A stretch of 9,955 nt of DNA from Promethearchaeota archaeon (GTDB lineage Archaea; Asgardarchaeota; Heimdallarchaeia; Hodarchaeales; Hodarchaeaceae), in contig JBHLPG010000134.1 of NCBI GenBank assembly GCA_048939725.1, forward strand, positions 1 through 9,955, written 5' to 3'. The notes under the pieces are model-generated. The model was not told the DNA's origin, did no database searches, and saw nothing but the letters and a program-made list of their open reading frames with translations. How positions within the stretch are numbered: the stretch's first letter is position 1; the number at the start of each line of letters is the position of its first letter. This document shows positions 1 through 9,955 of this stretch, piece by piece. A program made the translations under genes and the position numbers.

Positions 1-311
1 ATAACCTCATCATGTTCATCGATGAATAAAAGGCCCCCATCACCAGGTATGAAAGCTGTAACCTGTTTTCCATTTTTTATCAATTGTACTCTAGCACACT
101 TTCTAATCGCAGAATTGGGCTGCTTAGATTCAATTCCAACTTTTTCGATGACGATTCCACGAGCTTGGGGTGCTCCTTCTAAAGGATCGAATTTCTCCTT
201 CAATCGAAGGACCTTTCTCTTATAAGTTGTACTCTTCCAACGAAATTTCTTCCTTTTCCGTAATAATTTACTAGCAGCAAATTCTCCTCGTGGTGATTTC
301 AATCCAGTCAT
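1..311 (-). CDS. rps12: 30S ribosomal protein uS12 (S12/S23e), N-terminal 103 codons; the 3' end runs off the left window edge
   Basis: Absent from the ORF track because no stop lies in the window. Hand translation of the reverse strand from ATG 311..309 gives [103 protein letters not shown]. The DPLEGAP...[26 protein letters not shown] core is the conserved uS12 signature. The position downstream of nusA is the canonical archaeal order. Confidence 0.93.
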
Positions 312-451
312 ATTTCTTCGCCAAATTAATTTAAAATTCTAAAATGTATAATCAAACTATATATTCTCAGCTTTGAACCGAATAGGGCTGTTATCCTTTT
401 TTTTTTCTTATATATATGAAGAGTTTTGTCACTCTAATTAATCTTAAAAAT
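312..451 (-). promoter_or_regulatory. nusA-rps12 spacer, probably carrying an internal promoter for the rps12 operon
   Basis: The spacer is 140 nt and very AT-rich, whereas the upstream genes are packed with gaps of 2-29 nt. On the transcribed strand a T5 run follows the nusA stop directly (446-450). There are several TATA-like boxes, for example TTTTAAAT (336..329), TTATACAT and ATATATATAAG (about 408-418). I cannot tell which box, if any, is used. Confidence 0.3.
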
Positions 452-877
452 TCAAGGAGGGCTTTGGATAATTACGTTATTGATTCCAAAGTGTCTTTTC
501 AGTAAAAGACGGGACCTCTGTATATTCCTCCCATTCTTGCCTATAGCTTTTCCCCTTTCCTGCGGAATGACTGTAACTACAACTGTTTTCTTTCCTGATT
601 TCTCATGAATCTCAATGTTTTTTGCTTTAGCAGGTGCAAGTGTATTTGCTGCAAAATTCTCTACATTTTCAGAATATTCAACAATGTCAATCTGCTTTTG
701 AAAATGTTCACGAAGACGTCTGATAGTTGTGCCTCCACGACCAATTACTTTTCCTGTGTCATTTCGTCGAACCACGAAAATAACGCGAGTTTCAGATTTA
801 TCCCAAACGCAATCGACAGCGAGAGCACCTGTAAGTCCTTCGAGAATGGAAATAAATCGGAGTTCTTCTTGGGACAT
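452..877 (-). CDS. nusA: archaeal NusA-like transcription factor (two KH domains), 141 aa
   Basis: Part of ORF 452..982. I trimmed the start to ATG 877..875 (MSQEELRFISILEG...) because the 982 start would overlap rpl30e by 76 nt. Two KH GxxG motifs are present: GKVIGRGGTTIRRL and GKAIGKNGRNIQRSRLLLKRHFG. Size and position between rpl30e and rps12 are typical. Confidence 0.85.
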   Translation of the reverse strand: MSQEELRFISILEGLTGALAVDCVWDKSETRVIFVVRRNDTGKVIGRGGTTIRRLREHFQKQIDIVEYSENVENFAANTLAPAKAKNIEIHEKSGKKTVVVTVIPQERGKAIGKNGRNIQRSRLLLKRHFGINNVIIQSPP

Positions 878-906
878 TCTAATATTTGACAAGCAAAAAC
901 ATCCTA

Positions 907-1206
907 TCAAATATAATCTAGAATTTTGGAATTCCCTGGATCTAAAATCGCTAGTGTAGAGACGACATGAGGACGCCCGCATGCTGCACCAAGATCAAAT
1001 CCAGTTTTCTCATATTCAATGACTGGGATCTGCGAGAGTTCACAATTTCTTAATAGTTTTCTCTTAGAGTCTAACGGGATATTACTTGAAATTAGGGCTG
1101 CTTTAACTTTCCCGCTTAAAACGCTTTTAATCGTAGCACTATATCCTATTTTCACTTTTCCAGTACTTATAGCCATACTTATGGCTTTTTCTATTTCTTG
1201 TTTCAT
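907..1206 (-). CDS. rpl30e: 50S ribosomal protein eL30 (L30e), 99 aa
   Basis: ORF 907..1206. The sequence GKVKIGYSATIKSVLSGKVKAALISSNIP...IPVIEYEKTGFDLGAACGRPHVVSTLAILDPGNS is L30e/L7Ae-fold-like. The ATG lies 2 nt after the rpoA2 stop (TAACCATG). This is the canonical slot between rpoA2 and nusA. Confidence 0.85.
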   Translation of the reverse strand: MKQEIEKAISMAISTGKVKIGYSATIKSVLSGKVKAALISSNIPLDSKRKLLRNCELSQIPVIEYEKTGFDLGAACGRPHVVSTLAILDPGNSKILDYI

Positions 1207-1208
1207 GG

Positions 1209-5103
<3,895 letters not shown>

Positions 5104-5200
5104 AAGGTAGTCTCCCAGTAACATAACAGATAGAGCAAAATAAAGAATTTAGGAATATTGATGAGTTTTTAAGGAAAGGTACTGGTAATGAATGTGAAAA
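5104..5200 (-). promoter_or_regulatory. rpoA1 upstream region: Shine-Dalgarno-like GGGAG plus AT-rich TATA-like boxes
   Basis: The transcribed strand reads ...TCAATATTCCTAAATTCTTTATTTTGCTCTATCTGTTATGTTACTGGGAGACTACCTTATG. It contains TTTATTTT and CTAAATT boxes 30-50 nt upstream of the ATG, plus the GGGAG. Because no gene abuts rpoA1, it needs its own promoter here or depends on read-through from upstream. The exact TATA/BRE cannot be resolved by eye. Confidence 0.35.
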
Positions 5201-5422
5201 TTACTCAACTAACGCTAGCTGCATAGTTGTTTATGTATTTTGACTAAGACCAGCCAGAAGTTTGCTTCCTTCAATTGAAATAATAATAGCAGAATTAAAG
5301 GAGAGGGATAAAAATTTTAGAAAGCTAATGGTCAGAAAAAACAATATGGCATGAAAAATTAGGTTTTCGTGTTCATTCACATCGCATTTACATAATTATA
5401 TTTAGATATACTTGATGAAATT

Positions 5423-5429
5423 AAAAAAA
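5423..5429 (-). terminator. oligo-T (T7) tract on the transcribed strand, 38 nt after the stop of the 61-codon ORF; candidate archaeal intrinsic terminator
   Basis: The minus strand downstream of stop 5467 reads TAAATGAATGATAGTAACAGAAAAAGCTTATTTGTGAAAGTTTTTTTAATTTC. Archaeal RNAP terminates at oligo-T runs. A weaker TTATTT lies just upstream. Confidence 0.3.
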
Positions 5430-5466
5430 CTTTCACAAATAAGCTTTTTCTGTTACTATCATTCAT

Positions 5467-5652
5467 TTAGTTATGAAGGATCAGATTATTCAGAGTAAAT
5501 ATGAAAAGACCAGCAAATAGGCAGAATTTTCCGATCCGATTGCCAGTGGGGGCATAGATGATTGAGCCAAGAGCTATTAAACAAGCTCCAAATTGCACAG
5601 AAACAATAATTTCGATGCAGGTGAAAATTATTATTGTGATGATTTCAACCAA
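5467..5652 (-). CDS. hypothetical small membrane protein (61 codons, two hydrophobic helices), or the C-terminal part of the upstream ORF
   Basis: ORF 5467..5652. The only start is TTG (5652..5650), and there is no internal Met. It lies in the same reading frame as ORF 5659..6180, separated from it by TAA plus two sense codons (TTT AAC). The sequence is strongly hydrophobic: IITIIIFTCIEIIVSV...CLFAGLFIFTL. Confidence 0.4.
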   Translation of the reverse strand: MVEIITIIIFTCIEIIVSVQFGACLIALGSIIYAPTGNRIGKFCLFAGLFIFTLNNLILHN

Positions 5653-5658
5653 GTTAAA

Positions 5659-6180
5659 TTATGTCCTCCATATCGGCATATTAGGAAATTGAAAGCCCAA
5701 TGGGAAAATTACACATAATAAACAGATTACGCTTTTTTTCAAGTTTTTTTTCCGCTTCATATCAGACGAAATAATGTAAAGACCAAGATTTCCAAGAAAT
5801 ACGATAAGAGATAAAGAAGCGAAAATAAACAGCAGGTAAGCTGTGATAAAGGTTGCTAAAGACTGAAATCCGTCAAATGGTTCAATTATCTCTCCCATAT
5901 TAGGAAAATTTGGATTAAAAATATAGAATAGGAGTGTTAAGATAGCTAATGATCTTAGAATCATCATTTTTCCATTTTCCTCGTTATAATCCAAAAGATA
6001 GACTATTGCTCCTAATATTATTGAAAGATTTACTGTAAAAATAGTGATACATATTAGAATTGGGAAGACTGATAAAAAAAAATCATTTATCTTGTTAGAA
6101 ATTAATTCTAAATAACTTATAACCTCACTTGAGAAGAAATCTCTATCAACCTTCACAAAAAATAAATCAAGATGAATCAA
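5659..6180 (-). CDS. hypothetical polytopic membrane protein, 173 codons (about 4-5 TM segments)
   Basis: ORF 5659..6180. A stop-free run of 173 codons is very unlikely by chance in DNA this AT-rich. The annotated start is TTG (6180..6178). GTG at codon 9 and ATG-ATG at codons 72-73 (preceded by GAGGA) are alternatives. TM-like stretches include FLSVFPILICITIFTVNLSIILGAIVYLL, ILRSLAILTLLFYIF, LATFITAYLLFIFASLSLIVFLGNLGLYII and VICLLCVIFPLGF. I recognised no family motif. Confidence 0.6.
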   Translation of the reverse strand: MIHLDLFFVKVDRDFFSSEVISYLELISNKINDFFLSVFPILICITIFTVNLSIILGAIVYLLDYNEENGKMMILRSLAILTLLFYIFNPNFPNMGEIIEPFDGFQSLATFITAYLLFIFASLSLIVFLGNLGLYIISSDMKRKKNLKKSVICLLCVIFPLGFQFPNMPIWRT

Positions 6181-6301
6181 GATTATCCCTAAAACTAGTT
6201 ATTAGAAGTATCTGAATCCATATTAAAAATTCAACAAGCCATATAAACTCCCAATAATATGAAAGACATATTTTCTCATTGAGAAGAATCTCCTTCTTCA
6301 T
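6167..6301 (-). CDS. possible 44-codon small membrane ORF, or a frameshifted N-terminus of the 173-codon ORF
   Basis: Found by hand translation and too short for the ORF track. ATG 6301..6299 gives MKKEILLNEKICLSYYWEFIWLVEFLIWIQILLITSFRDNLDSS, ending at TGA 6169..6167. It begins 18 nt after the ATPase stop and overlaps the TTG start of the next ORF by 14 nt in another frame. It has no Shine-Dalgarno-like element. Confidence 0.2.
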   Translation of the reverse strand: MKKEILLNEKICLSYYWEFIWLVEFLIWIQILLITSFRDNLDSS

Positions 6302-6319
6302 AATAATGAAAATAAGAAC

Positions 6320-7720
6320 TTAGAATCCACTACCAGTTTCCTGACATAATTCTAAGGCAATATTCTTTGAAGCGGTTATTGCTTCATTTAAACCAATTTG
6401 ATTGTGAGAAATTAAAAAATCCAAAGTGGATATACCTGATTCAGAGTTTGGATGGGAAAGAAAAGACTCAAATTTTTTTTCAGATAGGGTTTCAATCTTT
6501 CCTTCATTTGTTAATTCAGTAATTCTCATGATTTTACGTTTTTTTACATTTCTAATCCAAGATACATTTAGCTCTATGAAAATATGAGGGAAAGAAGTCT
6601 TCAAAAGTTCTAGTGGAATTTCATAGATATCCTTCAAGCGTCTGAATAAAAATTCAGGGTTTCTGCCATGAATTGTTTGGATTGATGGAATTCCAACTGA
6701 GAGTACATTCAAGAAAGCTGAGAAATTGTCTTTAGTTGAAAGTTCCCCTAAGTTTATAAAATCTGGACTTCTATGTAATATCTTTTGCATTTCTAGTGAT
6801 TTCGAAAAAATTAAGGTTTCTTGTGGATCATATCCTAACCGAAATTTTACTGTATTCCCCTGTCTTGTTTCAGTGGTTTCAAGAACATCTTCTACAGATA
6901 GAAGTCGTAAATGAGAAGGAATATATTCAATTAAGGCATTCTGTAAAGTAGTTTTGCCTGAATTTGGAGGGCCAATAATCGAAATAGAGACTTGATTCTG
7001 AATCAAGAAAATCAATAATAGAGCTTGATTTATAGTCATGCTTCCATTATTAACTAGATCTGGAATTTTTAATTTGTTTGAACGAAATTTTCTAATATCT
7101 ATATGATAATCTTCAATCGTTAAAGGTGGAATATCTACTGTAACTCGAGTGTGAAATAAAGAAGATACAAAATCTGTTTTCATGGTTGGATTACTTTTGT
7201 TTAATGAAAAATCATTTTCTAAAGCAACTCGATAAATAAAAGATTCAATCTCTTTTGTTGTAAGCTTAATTGATGTAATACATCTTCCATGTTTTGAATG
7301 ATCAATATATAGATTCTTCTTACTTGAATCAAGATATATTTCATCTATCTGATCATCAATCAAAAGTGGGCCTATTTTTTCAAGATCGAGAATACGTAAT
7401 AATACAGGGATTAAAAGTTGTTTTGGAAGTTCTAACTGGTTAGAAATATCTCCTGATAAATACTCATAAATTTGGTTAAAAGAACAAAAGTCATTATGCT
7501 GTAAAATGAATTTTTTAAGGAAAAATTTAATCTCATTCTCATAACGGTTAAAATTCTTTAAATGATCATAGGTTAGAGGATCAAACTGAACCTGATATTC
7601 AAATTCCTTTATATAGGGGACTTTTAATATTGATACAATATAAGACTGAAATGAATAAGAATCTATCCTTATAGTATCATATTCATTAAATCTAGTGTCG
7701 TAATTTAATTGGGAATTCAT
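6320..7720 (-). CDS. FlaI/PilB/VirB11-family secretion (type IV filament) ATPase, 466 aa, divergent
   Basis: ORF 6320..7720. The full family layout is present. The N-domain reads EKIGPLLIDDQIDEIYLDSSKKNLYIDH...RVTVDIPPLTIEDYHIDIRKFRSNKLKIPDLVNNGSMT. Walker A is IIGPPNSGKTT (6947-6973). The Asp box is RLLSVEDVLE. Walker B with the catalytic Glu is RSPDFINLGE (about 6743-6763). The His box is QTIHGRNPEFLFRRL (about 6659-6676). GGAAG lies 6 nt before the ATG and 21 nt after the upstream gene. Confidence 0.85.
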   Translation of the reverse strand: MNSQLNYDTRFNEYDTIRIDSYSFQSYIVSILKVPYIKEFEYQVQFDPLTYDHLKNFNRYENEIKFFLKKFILQHNDFCSFNQIYEYLSGDISNQLELPKQLLIPVLLRILDLEKIGPLLIDDQIDEIYLDSSKKNLYIDHSKHGRCITSIKLTTKEIESFIYRVALENDFSLNKSNPTMKTDFVSSLFHTRVTVDIPPLTIEDYHIDIRKFRSNKLKIPDLVNNGSMTINQALLLIFLIQNQVSISIIGPPNSGKTTLQNALIEYIPSHLRLLSVEDVLETTETRQGNTVKFRLGYDPQETLIFSKSLEMQKILHRSPDFINLGELSTKDNFSAFLNVLSVGIPSIQTIHGRNPEFLFRRLKDIYEIPLELLKTSFPHIFIELNVSWIRNVKKRKIMRITELTNEGKIETLSEKKFESFLSHPNSESGISTLDFLISHNQIGLNEAITASKNIALELCQETGSGF

Positions 7721-7741
7721 TTTTTACTTCCTGATAAAATT

Positions 7742-8038
7742 TCATTCTGGTTTCTTCGACTCCTGGAGCATTTGAGAAAAAATCACCCCTAAATTATTCG
7801 GAAGAGAATCTCTTAACAAATTTTCCTTGTTTTCTGCAATATCAAAACAATATTTTCTACGAACTATACCTTGACCATCGATATAAAGAGTGAGAATGTG
7901 GCCCTCCTTTGAATGAGACATTGCCTTGGTAATAAGAGAATGCTGTTCTCGAGCGTTGACTAATTCAGACTCAGACACAAAAATCGATTCCTTCTTTCCA
8001 CAGATTGGACAAGTTGTTTGAATAACAGTTTTTTGCAT
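7742..8038 (-). CDS. hypothetical small CxxC protein, 98 aa from ATG 8038 (103 aa from TTG 8053)
   Basis: ORF 7742..8053. The ORF-track start is TTG, and ATG 8038..8036 (MQKTVIQTTCPICGKK...) is the first ATG. It carries an N-terminal CPIC knuckle, later His residues (SHSKEGH) and one more Cys. It ends 21 nt before the ATPase ATG, so the two are probably co-transcribed. I recognised no family. Confidence 0.6.
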   Translation of the reverse strand: MQKTVIQTTCPICGKKESIFVSESELVNAREQHSLITKAMSHSKEGHILTLYIDGQGIVRRKYCFDIAENKENLLRDSLPNNLGVIFSQMLQESKKPE

Positions 8039-8374
8039 TTGAAGAACCGGCAATATAATTCCCGAAATTAATTTTGAGACTTAGAATAAAAAAACCCAAG
8101 TTTCACACAACTTAAACAACCCTTCTAAAACTAGCAGTAATGATTAGTATTAGAGCGGGGATGCAAGACCACAACAAATAGATTCATTAAAATCATTTGA
8201 AGGTGTTAATATTGATATTGATATGAAATTTGTCTATAACATTCTGATAAACGTTTCTGAGACCATTAGGAAAAATACTATTAAATTACGTTAAATACGA
8301 CGTATCAAATATCAAGTGAATTGGCTTCTTTTGAATGAATTTGATTTCCTTGACAATTGTTAGGTTCAAATAAA

Positions 8375-8420
8375 GGATTTTGGAATTTTATGATATCATA
8401 TTCCAGAACGAGAATTTCCA
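8375..8420. promoter_or_regulatory. cluster of GGAAT/TGGAAT motifs and a nested palindrome 36-81 nt upstream of the platform gene; candidate operator
   Basis: Positions 8381-8405 read TGGAAT-TTT-ATGATATCAT-ATTCCA. This is a perfect 10-bp palindrome at 8390-8399 flanked by 6-bp inverted arms. GGATTTT and GGAATTTT form a direct repeat at 8375-8389. A third inverted copy, GAATTTCCA, lies at 8412-8420. TAATTTA at 8424-8430 lies 26-32 nt before ATG 8456. Confidence 0.3.
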
Positions 8421-8455
8421 TTCTAATTTAGGAACTCTCGAAAAATTGATGTTCT

Positions 8456-9955
8456 ATGAGTAGCATCTCCGAGAATTTTCAGACCCTCTTATTTGGAAAT
8501 TTTAATTTCTTCGCCCAATATCAGTTTGAAAAATATTTCAAATCGAAATATAAATTGGGTGAAAAGCAGGTTCATTTGATTTCTTTCTCTTTTTTTGCCT
8601 TATCTCATTTCTTCATTGGATTTCAGATATTTCTTACCAAGAGGGTCATTTTTGAAGTAATATTGATTGAGATTATACTAATCATAACTCTGTTGAGGCT
8701 CTTCAACTACATCATTTATGTTGAATTCAAGGATTATTGCACTACAATAGAAACCATTGGGTACTTTGTTGTAAATGAGTTATTAATGATACTAGATACT
8801 TCAGTATCTTTGAAAGAGGCTACTAAATTCATTATATCGAGTAACTATCCTCTTTTTTCTGAAATATTTTCAGAAGCAATGATTTTAACACATTTCGGCA
8901 ATCCGTTGAATTTCGCATTAAAAACACTAATTCAGAAAAGGCTTTTTGGACGAATTCAAACAATATTCTTATATATTTTAGAAATTTGGGAAAATGGAAA
9001 AAATATTGCACTCCTCTCAAAGAACAGGATCCTTGGCAGGATATCCGATCAAATAACAGAGGAAACAAATAAAATTGACTCTTGGGCTTCTTTATCGGCT
9101 GGAATAATATTTCTAAGTCCCCCAGTTATATATTGCTTTCTATTAATTTCTGGGAATATGAGTATATTTTTCGGGATTTTAATCATAATTGGTATCATAA
9201 TTGGATCATTTTTTATCCATCCAGAAAAACATCTGACAGTATTTTCGAAAAATAATAAACTATTCTTATCTTATGATGTAAGATCCTTAGAACTCTTAGT
9301 TATTCTTTCAGAAAATTTATTAAGAGGAAAATCTTTCAATAAAAGCCTTAATAATACCTTAAATATAATGGAGATTGATTTACAAAAAGCAAGGACAAGA
9401 ATCACGGATCCATATACCAATTTTAGATTAGGTATTAAAGAAAGAAACGAAATCAGTGCGAATCTTTTAGCTGACTTTTTTCCTGAACGAATCATCCAGC
9501 TGATCCTTTTGATTAAAAAATTTTCAATGATCAATGTAATCATTGCAGGAGAAAAATTACAAGCAATAACAAATGAATTAAATAAAATCAATGAATTTCT
9601 AAGTAAAGGTGATGCACAACTTAAAGCAGCAAAATTACATGGAACTATAATTCAAGTGCTTGCCTTAATATCTCTAGGTTTTATTACTGGAGCCAGTTCT
9701 TTTTTTCTCCTTGTATCAAATATGTTGTATCATCCATTTACAGAATCCTCGTTACCAATGAATAATTCTGCCTTTGAATTGATTTATATGATGACAGCTT
9801 TAGTATTAAGCGTATTACCAATCAGGAGAATTAATATTAAAGGGCTCAAAAACATTGAAACAATTCCATGGAAGGAAATACTGGGATTTTCTAAATTCAT
9901 ATTGTTTTTAATGGTATATATATTTGTTAAAAACGTTTTAATGGGATTATATTAA
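8456..9955 (+). CDS. polytopic membrane protein with two T2SSF-like repeats (FlaJ/PilC/TadC-type platform protein), 499 aa
   Basis: ORF 8456..9955. The stop TAA is the last codon of the window. Two cytoplasmic helical segments are each followed by TM helices and fit the T2SSF pattern as I remember it. Repeat 1 spans aa ~98-230 (nt ~8747-9145): LLMILDTSVSLKEATKFIISSNYPLFSEIFSEAMILTHFGNPLNFALKT...LYILEIWENGKNIALL. Repeat 2 spans aa ~276-415 (nt ~9281-9700): LVILSENLLRGKSFNKSLNNTLN...LLADFFPERIIQLILLIKKFS...LQAITNEL. There are about 7-8 TM segments. The gene is divergently paired with a FlaI-type ATPase. Confidence 0.7.
   Translation: MSSISENFQTLLFGNFNFFAQYQFEKYFKSKYKLGEKQVHLISFSFFALSHFFIGFQIFLTKRVIFEVILIEIILIITLLRLFNYIIYVEFKDYCTTIETIGYFVVNELLMILDTSVSLKEATKFIISSNYPLFSEIFSEAMILTHFGNPLNFALKTLIQKRLFGRIQTIFLYILEIWENGKNIALLSKNRILGRISDQITEETNKIDSWASLSAGIIFLSPPVIYCFLLISGNMSIFFGILIIIGIIIGSFFIHPEKHLTVFSKNNKLFLSYDVRSLELLVILSENLLRGKSFNKSLNNTLNIMEIDLQKARTRITDPYTNFRLGIKERNEISANLLADFFPERIIQLILLIKKFSMINVIIAGEKLQAITNELNKINEFLSKGDAQLKAAKLHGTIIQVLALISLGFITGASSFFLLVSNMLYHPFTESSLPMNNSAFELIYMMTALVLSVLPIRRINIKGLKNIETIPWKEILGFSKFILFLMVYIFVKNVLMGLY

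Follow-up and report, generated by a model that had tools for sequence, protein, structure and literature searches.

What does a cell do with the motor of a type IV filament machine when no pilin is encoded beside it? This question is raised by a 9,955-nucleotide stretch of DNA from an archaeon of the Hodarchaeales (contig JBHLPG010000134.1, positions 1 to 9,955; the whole stretch is referred to here as the window). At positions 5467-9955 the listing of open reading frames (ORFs) places genes for a secretion ATPase and a small CxxC protein on the minus strand, divergent from the gene for a candidate membrane platform on the plus strand. An earlier note, made from the letters of the window, had described this arrangement, and the layout and coordinates that it gave for the ATPase gene, the CxxC gene, the 402-nucleotide gap and the divergent platform gene were all recovered. 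Among the archaea, it is the Heimdallarchaeia, including the Hodarchaeales, that are most often placed beside the eukaryotes. Cultured Hodarchaeales strains depend on physical contact with syntrophic partners and bear surface filaments to which no genes have been assigned.

We conclude from the comparisons reported below that the region appears to be the left five-sevenths of a seven-gene module that is conserved, inherited vertically and specific to the Heimdallarchaeia/Hodarchaeales. The module is best read as a lineage-specific, derived member of the archaeal type IV filament (TFF) superfamily, and its ATPase and platform very probably make up a TFF-derived motor.

The ATPase is intact and belongs to no named family

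The gene at positions 6320-7720 (minus strand) codes for a 466-aa protein of the T2SSE superfamily (FlaI/GspE/CpaF-like). The assignment, which the earlier note had made by eye, is borne out by a direct Pfam match (PF00437; 53.5 bits versus a cut-off of 24.9, E 2e-14, residues 123-365). Walker A (GPPNSGKT, residues 250-257), the N2-domain arginine (IRKF, 209-212), the Asp box (SVEDVLE, 275-281), Walker B (FINLGE, 321-326) and the His box (TIH, 349-351) are all present, and the catalytic residues are invariant in 62 out of 62 orthologues. The best relatives of known structure are A. fulgidus GspE (2oap, 67.5 bits), Sulfolobus FlaI (4ii7, 56.7 bits) and CpaF (44.9 bits); solved VirB11 structures score well below them (31 bits). 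Among NCBIfam models, the highest score was obtained with VirB11 (TIGR02788; 95.2 bits, below the cut-off of 249.95), and the scores for TrbB (TIGR02782; 64.4 versus 304.55), FlaI/ArlI (NF058587; 61.8 versus 550), TadA (54 versus 373) and BasE (38 versus 1000) likewise did not reach the cut-offs. The ATPase thus lies below every curated equivalog cut-off, and the equivalence to a catalogued pilus or archaellum ATPase, which the earlier note had named as one outcome that would speak against its proposal, was not found. Because the motifs are intact, the best relatives are FlaI and GspE, and all equivalog cut-offs are missed, the protein is most readily classified as a competent ATPase of the secretion superfamily that stands on the side of archaeal FlaI and GspE and belongs to no named family.

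A single position sets the protein apart. The residue following the Walker B glutamate is serine in all 62 orthologues and serine, glutamine, threonine or leucine in 29 paralogues; at residue 328, whose codon occupies window positions 7336-7338, FlaI, afGspE and most distant homologues have an arginine (GE[IV]R). Replacement of the arginine is a signature of the clade.

The platform protein is a remote relative of T2SSF

The plus-strand operon opens with the gene for a 499-aa polytopic membrane protein (8456-9955), which runs to the very end of the window, its stop codon being the final triplet there. The protein gave no T2SSF match (PF00482) in Pfam even at E<=1 and none in NCBIfam, and a profile of its family matched zero PDB sequences. 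Its close homologues number 37 in 5.8 billion clusters, 0 of them with a precomputed Pfam domain, and a HMMER profile collected 42 relatives among 1.84 billion representative proteins. Seven of the most distant relatives do carry Pfam T2SSF (P0180 with 48.8 bits, P0172 with 43.8, P0170 with 29.3), and in the search of the 1.84 billion proteins the profile reached the T2SSF-bearing P0170, P0173 and P0180 with E values of 2e-7 to 6e-4. When the platform family was compared with Pfam-positive T2SSF proteins in hhalign, a match of 97.0% was obtained (E 8.3e-11, residues 21-182); the first half of the protein aligned with the T2SSF region of P0172 at 97.7% (E 2e-12). Hydropathy indicates ca. 8 transmembrane (TM) segments and two large cytoplasmic loops, with cytoplasmic helical domains at residues ~83-212 and 255-345. 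The AlphaFold2 model is all-helical (predicted local distance difference test score, pLDDT, 76.7), and its top Foldseek match in the PDB is a chain in the type IVa pilus machine model 3jc8 (probability 0.92, E 0.078).

Given the profile-profile matches, the transitive Pfam matches, the top fold match and the 8-TM, two-loop topology, the 499-aa protein appears to be a highly diverged T2SSF-type (FlaJ/TadC/PilC-like) platform. The first T2SSF domain can be taken as established by the profile comparisons. A second domain is likely: the second half of the protein aligned at 96.6% with the second half of the two-domain P0172, a region that is itself without a Pfam match, and the topology and the AlphaFold2 model are compatible with it, although from orthologues alone no internal duplication could be shown. 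The earlier description of the protein as a double T2SSF platform therefore stands in part, with remote profile-profile support for T2SSF, no direct Pfam match, and the word 'double' unproven. Scans at the level of Pfam overlook this platform, and current censuses probably undercount TFF-like systems in Asgard archaea.

No pilin or prepilin peptidase is encoded in the module

All possible ORF starts were scanned with a FlaFind-type class III pattern. Neither window positions 5125-9955 nor the complete modules of two orthologous loci (L002 and L006) contained a class III signal peptide, and no GxGD/GxHD motif was present in any frame of 5125-9955. The neighbourhood tables of the orthologous loci contained no Peptidase_A24 or pilin Pfam family, no FlaH, FlaJ, FlaF/G or archaellin genes, and no HerA/VirB4-type ATPase CedB, VirD4, relaxase or DNA-binding component. 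We conclude that the module itself is without a pilin and without a prepilin peptidase, in agreement with what had been noted for the window. Nor do these genes lie just past position 9955, where the earlier note had said that their presence would count against it: the place is taken in the orthologues by genes for a large putative surface protein and a ~480-aa protein.

Seven genes are conserved at a fixed chromosomal site

A genome scan with the platform profile returned 14 species-level genomes, and gene order was followed by tblastn in the long loci. All homologues come from metagenome-assembled genomes (MAGs) of Heimdall-group Asgard archaea, mostly labelled Hodarchaeales or Hodarchaeota and some Heimdallarchaeota; one orthologous locus lies on a 4.9-Mb chromosome (CP070695.1). 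In the full unit, the minus strand carries rpoA' and the genes for the 61-aa protein, a ~174-aa protein, the ATPase and the CxxC protein, while the divergent plus strand carries the platform gene followed by genes for proteins of ~1,170 aa and ~480 aa. An S9-L13-L18e-RpoD operon (minus strand) bounds the complete unit beyond the ~480-aa gene. The site, between rpoA' and the S9-L13-L18e-rpoD operon, is the same in the 14 species genomes, and all long orthologous loci agree in the order and orientation of the seven genes. In the window the module appears truncated because the assembly contig stops there: the contig is 9,957 bp long, the window is almost the whole of it, and it ends right after the platform stop codon. 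An exact look-up revealed no longer contig with an identical platform protein, and an identical ATPase occurred only on 3.9-kb and 9,957-bp contigs.

At the deepest split among the orthologues, identity is 58% for the ATPase, 51% for the CxxC protein, 44% for the 174-aa protein, 40% for the platform, 31% for the large protein and 26% for the 480-aa protein, compared with 91% for RpoA'. The ratio of nonsynonymous to synonymous substitution rates (dN/dS), calculated for the window versus two relatives, was 0.06-0.17 for four module genes (0.06-0.12 for CxxC, 0.10 for the ATPase, 0.16 for the 173-aa protein of the window and 0.12-0.17 for the platform), and 0.34-0.46 for the 61-aa gene; RpoA', for comparison, had 0.015. 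Because dN/dS is low and the catalytic residues are invariant, the module should be regarded as functional and not as decaying; that it is functional and vertically inherited is, in our judgment, nearly certain.

Three suggestions of the earlier note are at odds with these data. A decaying locus is contradicted by the dN/dS values, the invariant catalytic residues and the fixed synteny. The supposed broken operon is a conserved arrangement of the lineage and not damage. A reduced, host-associated archaeon does not fit relatives that are Heimdallarchaeia/Hodarchaeales, one of them with the module on a multi-megabase chromosome.

The CxxC protein and the small membrane proteins

The minus-strand operon begins with the gene for the 103-aa CxxC protein (7742-8053). 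Thirty homologues were collected, all of Heimdall type, with C14, C17, H46, D58, R64 and R65 invariant and a conserved C-terminal amphipathic helix. The AlphaFold2 model has a beta-beta-alpha-beta-beta-beta order (pLDDT 83 overall and ~95 in the core). Pfam gave sub-threshold zinc-ribbon matches and none above threshold, and in the PDB neither the family profile (by sequence) nor Foldseek (by fold, best E 0.47) produced a match. On the model and the invariant residues, a cytoplasmic zinc-knuckle protein is predicted. A role as a Roadblock/LC7 or longin-type GTPase partner, considered on account of Arf genes in paralogous modules, was rejected after Foldseek gave no significant PDB match. A metagenome scan with the CxxC profile returned only three loci, not enough for a census of neighbourhoods. 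Both the window-type module and two paralogous modules (L008 and L024) have the CxxC gene directly upstream of the ATPase gene, and the co-occurrence with the ATPase clade that the earlier note had asked about is thereby seen in orthologues and paralogues alike. Its recurrence makes the protein the apparent signature partner of this ATPase clade.

Two small membrane proteins are encoded at the other end of the operon. The 173-aa polytopic protein (5659-6180, minus strand) has ~4 TM segments and the conserved motifs YLLDYNEENGK, FLGNLGLY and PLGFQFPNxPxW; it is kept in every orthologous locus at 41-72% identity, with sub-threshold matches in Pfam and none above threshold in NCBIfam. It was also considered as a cryptic prepilin peptidase, and this was rejected, as it contains no GxGD/GxHD motif and gives no Peptidase_A24 match. 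The last gene of the operon (5467-5652, minus strand) codes for a 61-aa small membrane protein with two hydrophobic helices linked by a conserved YAPxG loop. By tblastn it was found right downstream of the 173-aa gene in 13 of 13 long orthologous loci (46-72% identity), and nothing in Pfam or NCBIfam matched it. A 44-aa ORF at 6167-6301 (minus strand) runs into the start of the 173-aa gene. None of the relatives has a corresponding frame, a non-coding spacer of 110-260 nt being seen there instead, and the ORF is probably spurious. The small membrane ORFs of the earlier note are thus real conserved genes in two cases and an unconserved frame in the third, and its remark that the accessory genes are unrecognisable was correct, no Pfam or NCBIfam family being matched above threshold.

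The large, putative surface protein and the ~480-aa protein

In the orthologous loci, the gene downstream of the platform gene on the plus strand codes for a protein of ~1,170 aa. Its N-terminus, a basic stretch followed by 14-18 hydrophobic residues, resembles a Sec signal or anchor, and it ends in a TM segment with a KKRK-type basic tail. The number of N-x-S/T sequons is 37-51 (ca. 18 would be expected), and 17 of them are conserved. No match above threshold was found in Pfam or NCBIfam, and none in the PDB with the family profile. These features are most simply explained by a heavily N-glycosylated type I surface protein anchored at its C-terminus. An S-layer protein is reported for the cultured isolates, and the large protein might be its counterpart. 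A reading as a giant pilin was not supported: the h-region is only ~14-18 residues long and the residue at -1 is variable (D, N, T, K, E, S, G). The protein of L004 (B3_Heim) is alone in matching a class III motif (KG|LSIVIL).

The ~480-aa protein has two N-terminal TM segments followed by a cytoplasmic domain with conserved cysteines (NQICxELC ... KKCxxRAxFC), and gave no matches above threshold in Pfam, NCBIfam or the PDB. In locus L002 its gene lies at 15134-16588. The cysteine pattern may be a metal or Fe-S site; it is reminiscent of the Fe-S protein AapX of Aap pilus loci, with no homology detected.

The intergenic region contains two similar promoter-like blocks

The non-coding gap between the divergent operons (8054-8455, 402 nt) was aligned with its counterparts in a set of 12 orthologous intergenic regions, and two conserved blocks, and only two, were observed. 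The block facing the CxxC-ATPase operon (8086-8105, minus strand) consists of GAAACTTGGG followed by a T-rich TATA-like box and lies 33-52 nt upstream of the CxxC start. The block facing the platform operon (8355-8377, plus strand) reads AATTGTTAGGTTCAAATAAAGGA in the window and GATTCTCGGGTTTAAATAAAGG in relatives, and lies ~80 nt upstream of the platform ATG. Both share a CTYGGG plus TTTWAA pattern, and from their likeness to the archaeal consensus of the transcription factor B recognition element (BRE) and TATA box we infer that both would be promoter elements. The resemblance of the two blocks to each other suggests coordinated divergent transcription of the two operons. Because the genes keep one order in the long loci and are preceded by two similar promoter-like blocks, the seven can be treated as one putative functional unit.

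Paralogous modules and an association with Arf-family GTPases

Hodarchaeales also have paralogous ATPases with 35-43% identity to that of the window, and such paralogues occur in further MAGs, including ones labelled Thor, Odin and Hermod. In two modules from Hodarchaeales (L008 and L024), a platform-like gene is divergent from genes for an Arf-family small GTPase, a CxxC homologue and the ATPase. With hmmsearch, the CxxC homologues of L008 and L024 were recognised at 2e-18 and 8e-16, and the platform-like proteins at 4e-41 and 1e-4. In a Thor-labelled locus (L009), the large protein has a homologue (hmmsearch, 1.7e-46) whose gene is divergent from a 320-aa gene, a platform gene (1.6e-51) and an ATPase gene; the L008 contig has a weak match to the large protein. 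Arf/Ras/Roc-family GTPase genes lie beside the ATPase genes in all three loci (L008, 6938-7507; L024, 3057-3701; L009, 9725-10297). From these gene neighbourhoods, the ATPase, platform and CxxC protein appear to be the recurring core of an Asgard-specific clade, and the giant surface protein appears to recur in at least one paralogous module. The position of the GTPase genes suggests that a eukaryote-type GTPase switch may act on a pilus-type motor in the paralogues. Such regulation would be relevant to the question of what governed membrane and surface dynamics ahead of eukaryogenesis.

Further observations were made at these loci. The L008 module adjoins the S10-S7 genes and is again beside core informational operons. 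In L009, a Roadblock/LC7 gene lies near the module (14279-14764), and the 320-aa protein encoded directly upstream of the platform gene (5475-6437) looks cyclin/TFIIB-like by eye.

Genes and insertions on the rpo side of the module

Positions 452-5124 of the window (minus strand) contain genes for NusA-KH, L30e, RpoA'' and RpoA' (ORF listing). The G+C content is 0.34-0.44 in the rpo genes and drops to 0.27-0.33 over 5001-9500, and no Rfam RNA family was found in the window. The usual order of the archaeal operon is rpoH-B-A'-A''. In the lineage of the window (L002-L023), rpoB and rpoH are not upstream of rpoA', and the module takes that position.

Across the loci, insertions are concentrated in the spacer that separates rpoA' from the 61-aa gene; this hot spot contains an IS200/IS605-type Y1 transposase gene in L005 (6690-7085) and an orphan 333-aa ORF in L006 (5713-6714). 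In the window, a hydrophobic 49-aa ORF (5231-5380, minus strand) lies between the 61-aa gene and rpoA'. It is weakly conserved in the nearest relatives only (53% identity; E 6e-8 to 8e-7 in L002 and L003) and may be a small gene, or else merely a conserved region upstream of rpoA'. An insert found in the L013 MAG (663-7481) has genes for an RRXRR-HNH endonuclease, for a glycosyltransferase and for a dCTP deaminase.

A proposed mechanism and its alternatives

What the data show is the gene content, the remote homologies, the conservation, the purifying selection and the lack of a pilin or peptidase gene in the locus; complex formation, the surface location of the large protein and the function are inferred. 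Judged by the families to which the proteins belong, a hexameric ATPase of the FlaI/GspE type would dock on the diverged two-domain platform in the cytoplasmic membrane. The CxxC zinc-knuckle protein would most likely be a cytoplasmic adaptor or regulator of the ATPase, and the membrane complex would be completed by the 61-aa and 173-aa proteins and by the ~480-aa membrane-anchored, Cys-rich cytoplasmic protein. Movement of the platform, driven by ATP, would most likely assemble, extrude or operate a cell-surface structure. This structure would involve the co-transcribed ~1,170-aa N-glycosylated, C-terminally anchored protein, while any filament subunit would be either non-canonical or encoded elsewhere. 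The large protein is treated as a partner because of its sequons, its signal or anchor and C-terminal TM segment, and its homologue beside the Thor-type ATPase-platform pair. That the module works with its own non-pilin partners on a surface structure involving the giant glycoprotein is a proposal to which we give roughly even chances.

Several observations weigh against this proposal. At -1 the large protein has neither G nor A in most orthologues and thus bears no mark of a TFF substrate; a surface protein that is unrelated and happens to be co-transcribed is another possibility. Pilins may be encoded elsewhere in these genomes. The two halves of the platform match each other weakly (E 0.0033 at 9.7% probability in hhalign with the wider alignment), the second domain is tied to T2SSF solely through a two-domain relative and this weak repeat signal, and TM-scores (template modelling scores) for the 3jc8 chain that is the top Foldseek match of the platform are low (0.20 and 0.28). 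Finally, the L013 MAG is rearranged: the 173-aa gene is interrupted there by the insert of ~6.8 kb, and the large gene is absent from the site.

The ATPase and platform could instead be the core of an ordinary archaeal adhesion pilus (Aap/Epd-like), with pilins, along with a class III signal peptidase, supplied in trans and the orphan proteins serving as regulators or anchors or being merely co-transcribed. This explanation is the main rival, if on the unlikely side. The two proteins make up the core that all TFF systems share, archaea commonly have stand-alone pilin genes, and the L004 large protein happens to match the class III motif. In a 2026 preprint, candidate pilins are reported in Asgard genomes, from unordered searches only, and a TFF consisting of core components is already listed for a few Heimdallarchaea (10.64898/2026.04.22.720090). 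However, seven genes, and not two, are co-conserved across a divergence that has brought the platform down to 40% identity. The ATPase also bears the clade signature and scores far below every pilus or archaellum equivalog, the platform is too diverged for Pfam T2SSF, and the divergent ATPase/platform layout with the CxxC gene recurs in the paralogues. A filament-independent translocator of DNA or proteins (Ced-, competence- or type IV secretion system-like) would account for the lack of a pilin in the locus and for VirB11 being the best NCBIfam score of the ATPase (95 bits), and a polytopic protein with two small membrane proteins and an ATPase presumably resembles the Ced layout. The VirB11 score is, however, far below the cut-off of 250, and archaeal GspE, FlaI and CpaF rank above VirB11 among solved structures. 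VirB4/HerA, VirD4, relaxase and DNA-binding components are missing from the neighbourhoods, a mobile transfer system does not fit well with the fixed site beside core informational operons, and conservation of a giant glycoprotein as partner speaks for the cell surface; we therefore consider a translocator improbable.

Two further explanations were considered. If the 499-aa protein were no TFF platform, and the ATPase acted alone or with other proteins, the juxtaposition of the two genes would be coincidental. Such a view draws on the lack of any direct Pfam, NCBIfam or PDB sequence match and on the Foldseek E value of 0.078 with low TM-scores, but it is very hard to reconcile with the hhalign match to Pfam-positive T2SSF proteins (97%, E 8e-11), with a HMMER profile that reaches T2SSF-bearing proteins at E 2e-7 to 6e-4 among 1.84 billion proteins, and with a platform gene that adjoins the ATPase gene in all 14 of the 14 genomes as well as in three paralogous systems. 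That the locus is what remains of a decaying pilus locus and has no function is scarcely credible: the missing pilin and peptidase, the high divergence and the disrupted L013 copy could be read in this way, but dN/dS is 0.06-0.17, no other locus has a disrupted ORF, and none of the 62 orthologues departs from the catalytic residues.

A surface machine with its own partners would be of interest for what is seen on cultured cells. Protrusion filaments of Hodarchaeales are helical and 15-25 nm wide, with ~50-nm terminal knobs and an unexplained nature; they often lie where cells touch methanogen partners, and they mediate the attachment of cells to their syntrophic partners (10.1101/2025.02.26.640444). 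That the module and its Arf-linked paralogues are the assembly machinery for these filaments is a long shot. If true, it would define, in the archaea nearest to eukaryotes, a new class of pilin-independent, TFF-derived appendages built around a giant glycoprotein, with paralogues of the appendage machine under the control of eukaryote-type small GTPases. With one site, an intact motor, no pilin and five orphan partners, the module is a testable candidate for a lineage-defining surface machine.

Comparison with known systems

A literature search found no description of the seven-gene module or of the Arf-linked paralogues. The novelty of the module is partly anticipated by a remark in the preprint of Sivabalasarma and Albers (2026; 10.64898/2026.04.22.720090), according to which TFF systems are widespread except in Asgard archaea and a few Heimdallarchaea encode a core-only TFF. 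These core-only systems, which may or may not be the module locus, are from the same lineage and have an ATPase and a platform without co-located pilins; the models applied there require a platform HMM match. The text that was read does not describe the loci, and no mention was found in it of the five-gene accessory set, the fixed site, the CxxC partner or the Arf-linked paralogues.

Pilin-less systems have a precedent in subclade 4D of the Thermoproteales, two-gene systems of unknown function composed of a secretion ATPase and a diverged TadC-like protein; small metal-binding and Roadblock proteins also occur in archaeal type IV pilus loci (PMC4858521). Both subclade 4D and the module combine an ATPase with a diverged membrane protein, and the subclade 4D locus has no pilin or secreted protein. 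However, subclade 4D has two components, a partner with 4-5 TM segments and an ATPase with a Cys-rich N-domain, whereas the module has seven genes, a ~8-TM platform that is likely two-domain, a separate CxxC protein and what appears to be a giant secreted glycoprotein.

Arf/Ras-family GTPase genes beside a TFF ATPase gene, as in the three paralogous Asgard modules, recall the control of the Myxococcus type IVa pilus by the small GTPases MglA and SofG. The window-type module differs in having no GTPase gene, and the GTPases of the paralogues are Arf-like and not MglA, the link being a genomic one. The Sulfolobus bindosome assembly system BasEF, one of the functionalised TFF machines, offers a functional analogy, as a TFF core there places large surface proteins that form no filament. 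Its substrates are substrate-binding proteins with canonical class III signal peptides, whereas the large protein of the module has no consistent class III motif and no recognisable domain, and the ATPase scores 38 with BasE versus a cut-off of 1000.

Compared with the archaeal TFF cores (FlaI/ArlI-FlaJ, AapE-AapF, UpsE-UpsF and afGspE, 2oap), the module has the same ATPase superfamily with all catalytic motifs, together with a polytopic, probably two-domain, T2SSF-related membrane partner. It differs in its divergent ATPase and platform genes, which are adjacent and co-directional in those cores; in having no pilin or archaellin, no FlaH, FlaX, AapX or UpsX and no peptidase, and five orphan accessory families instead; and in an ATPase with a replacement of the arginine after the Walker B glutamate, paired with a platform invisible to Pfam T2SSF.

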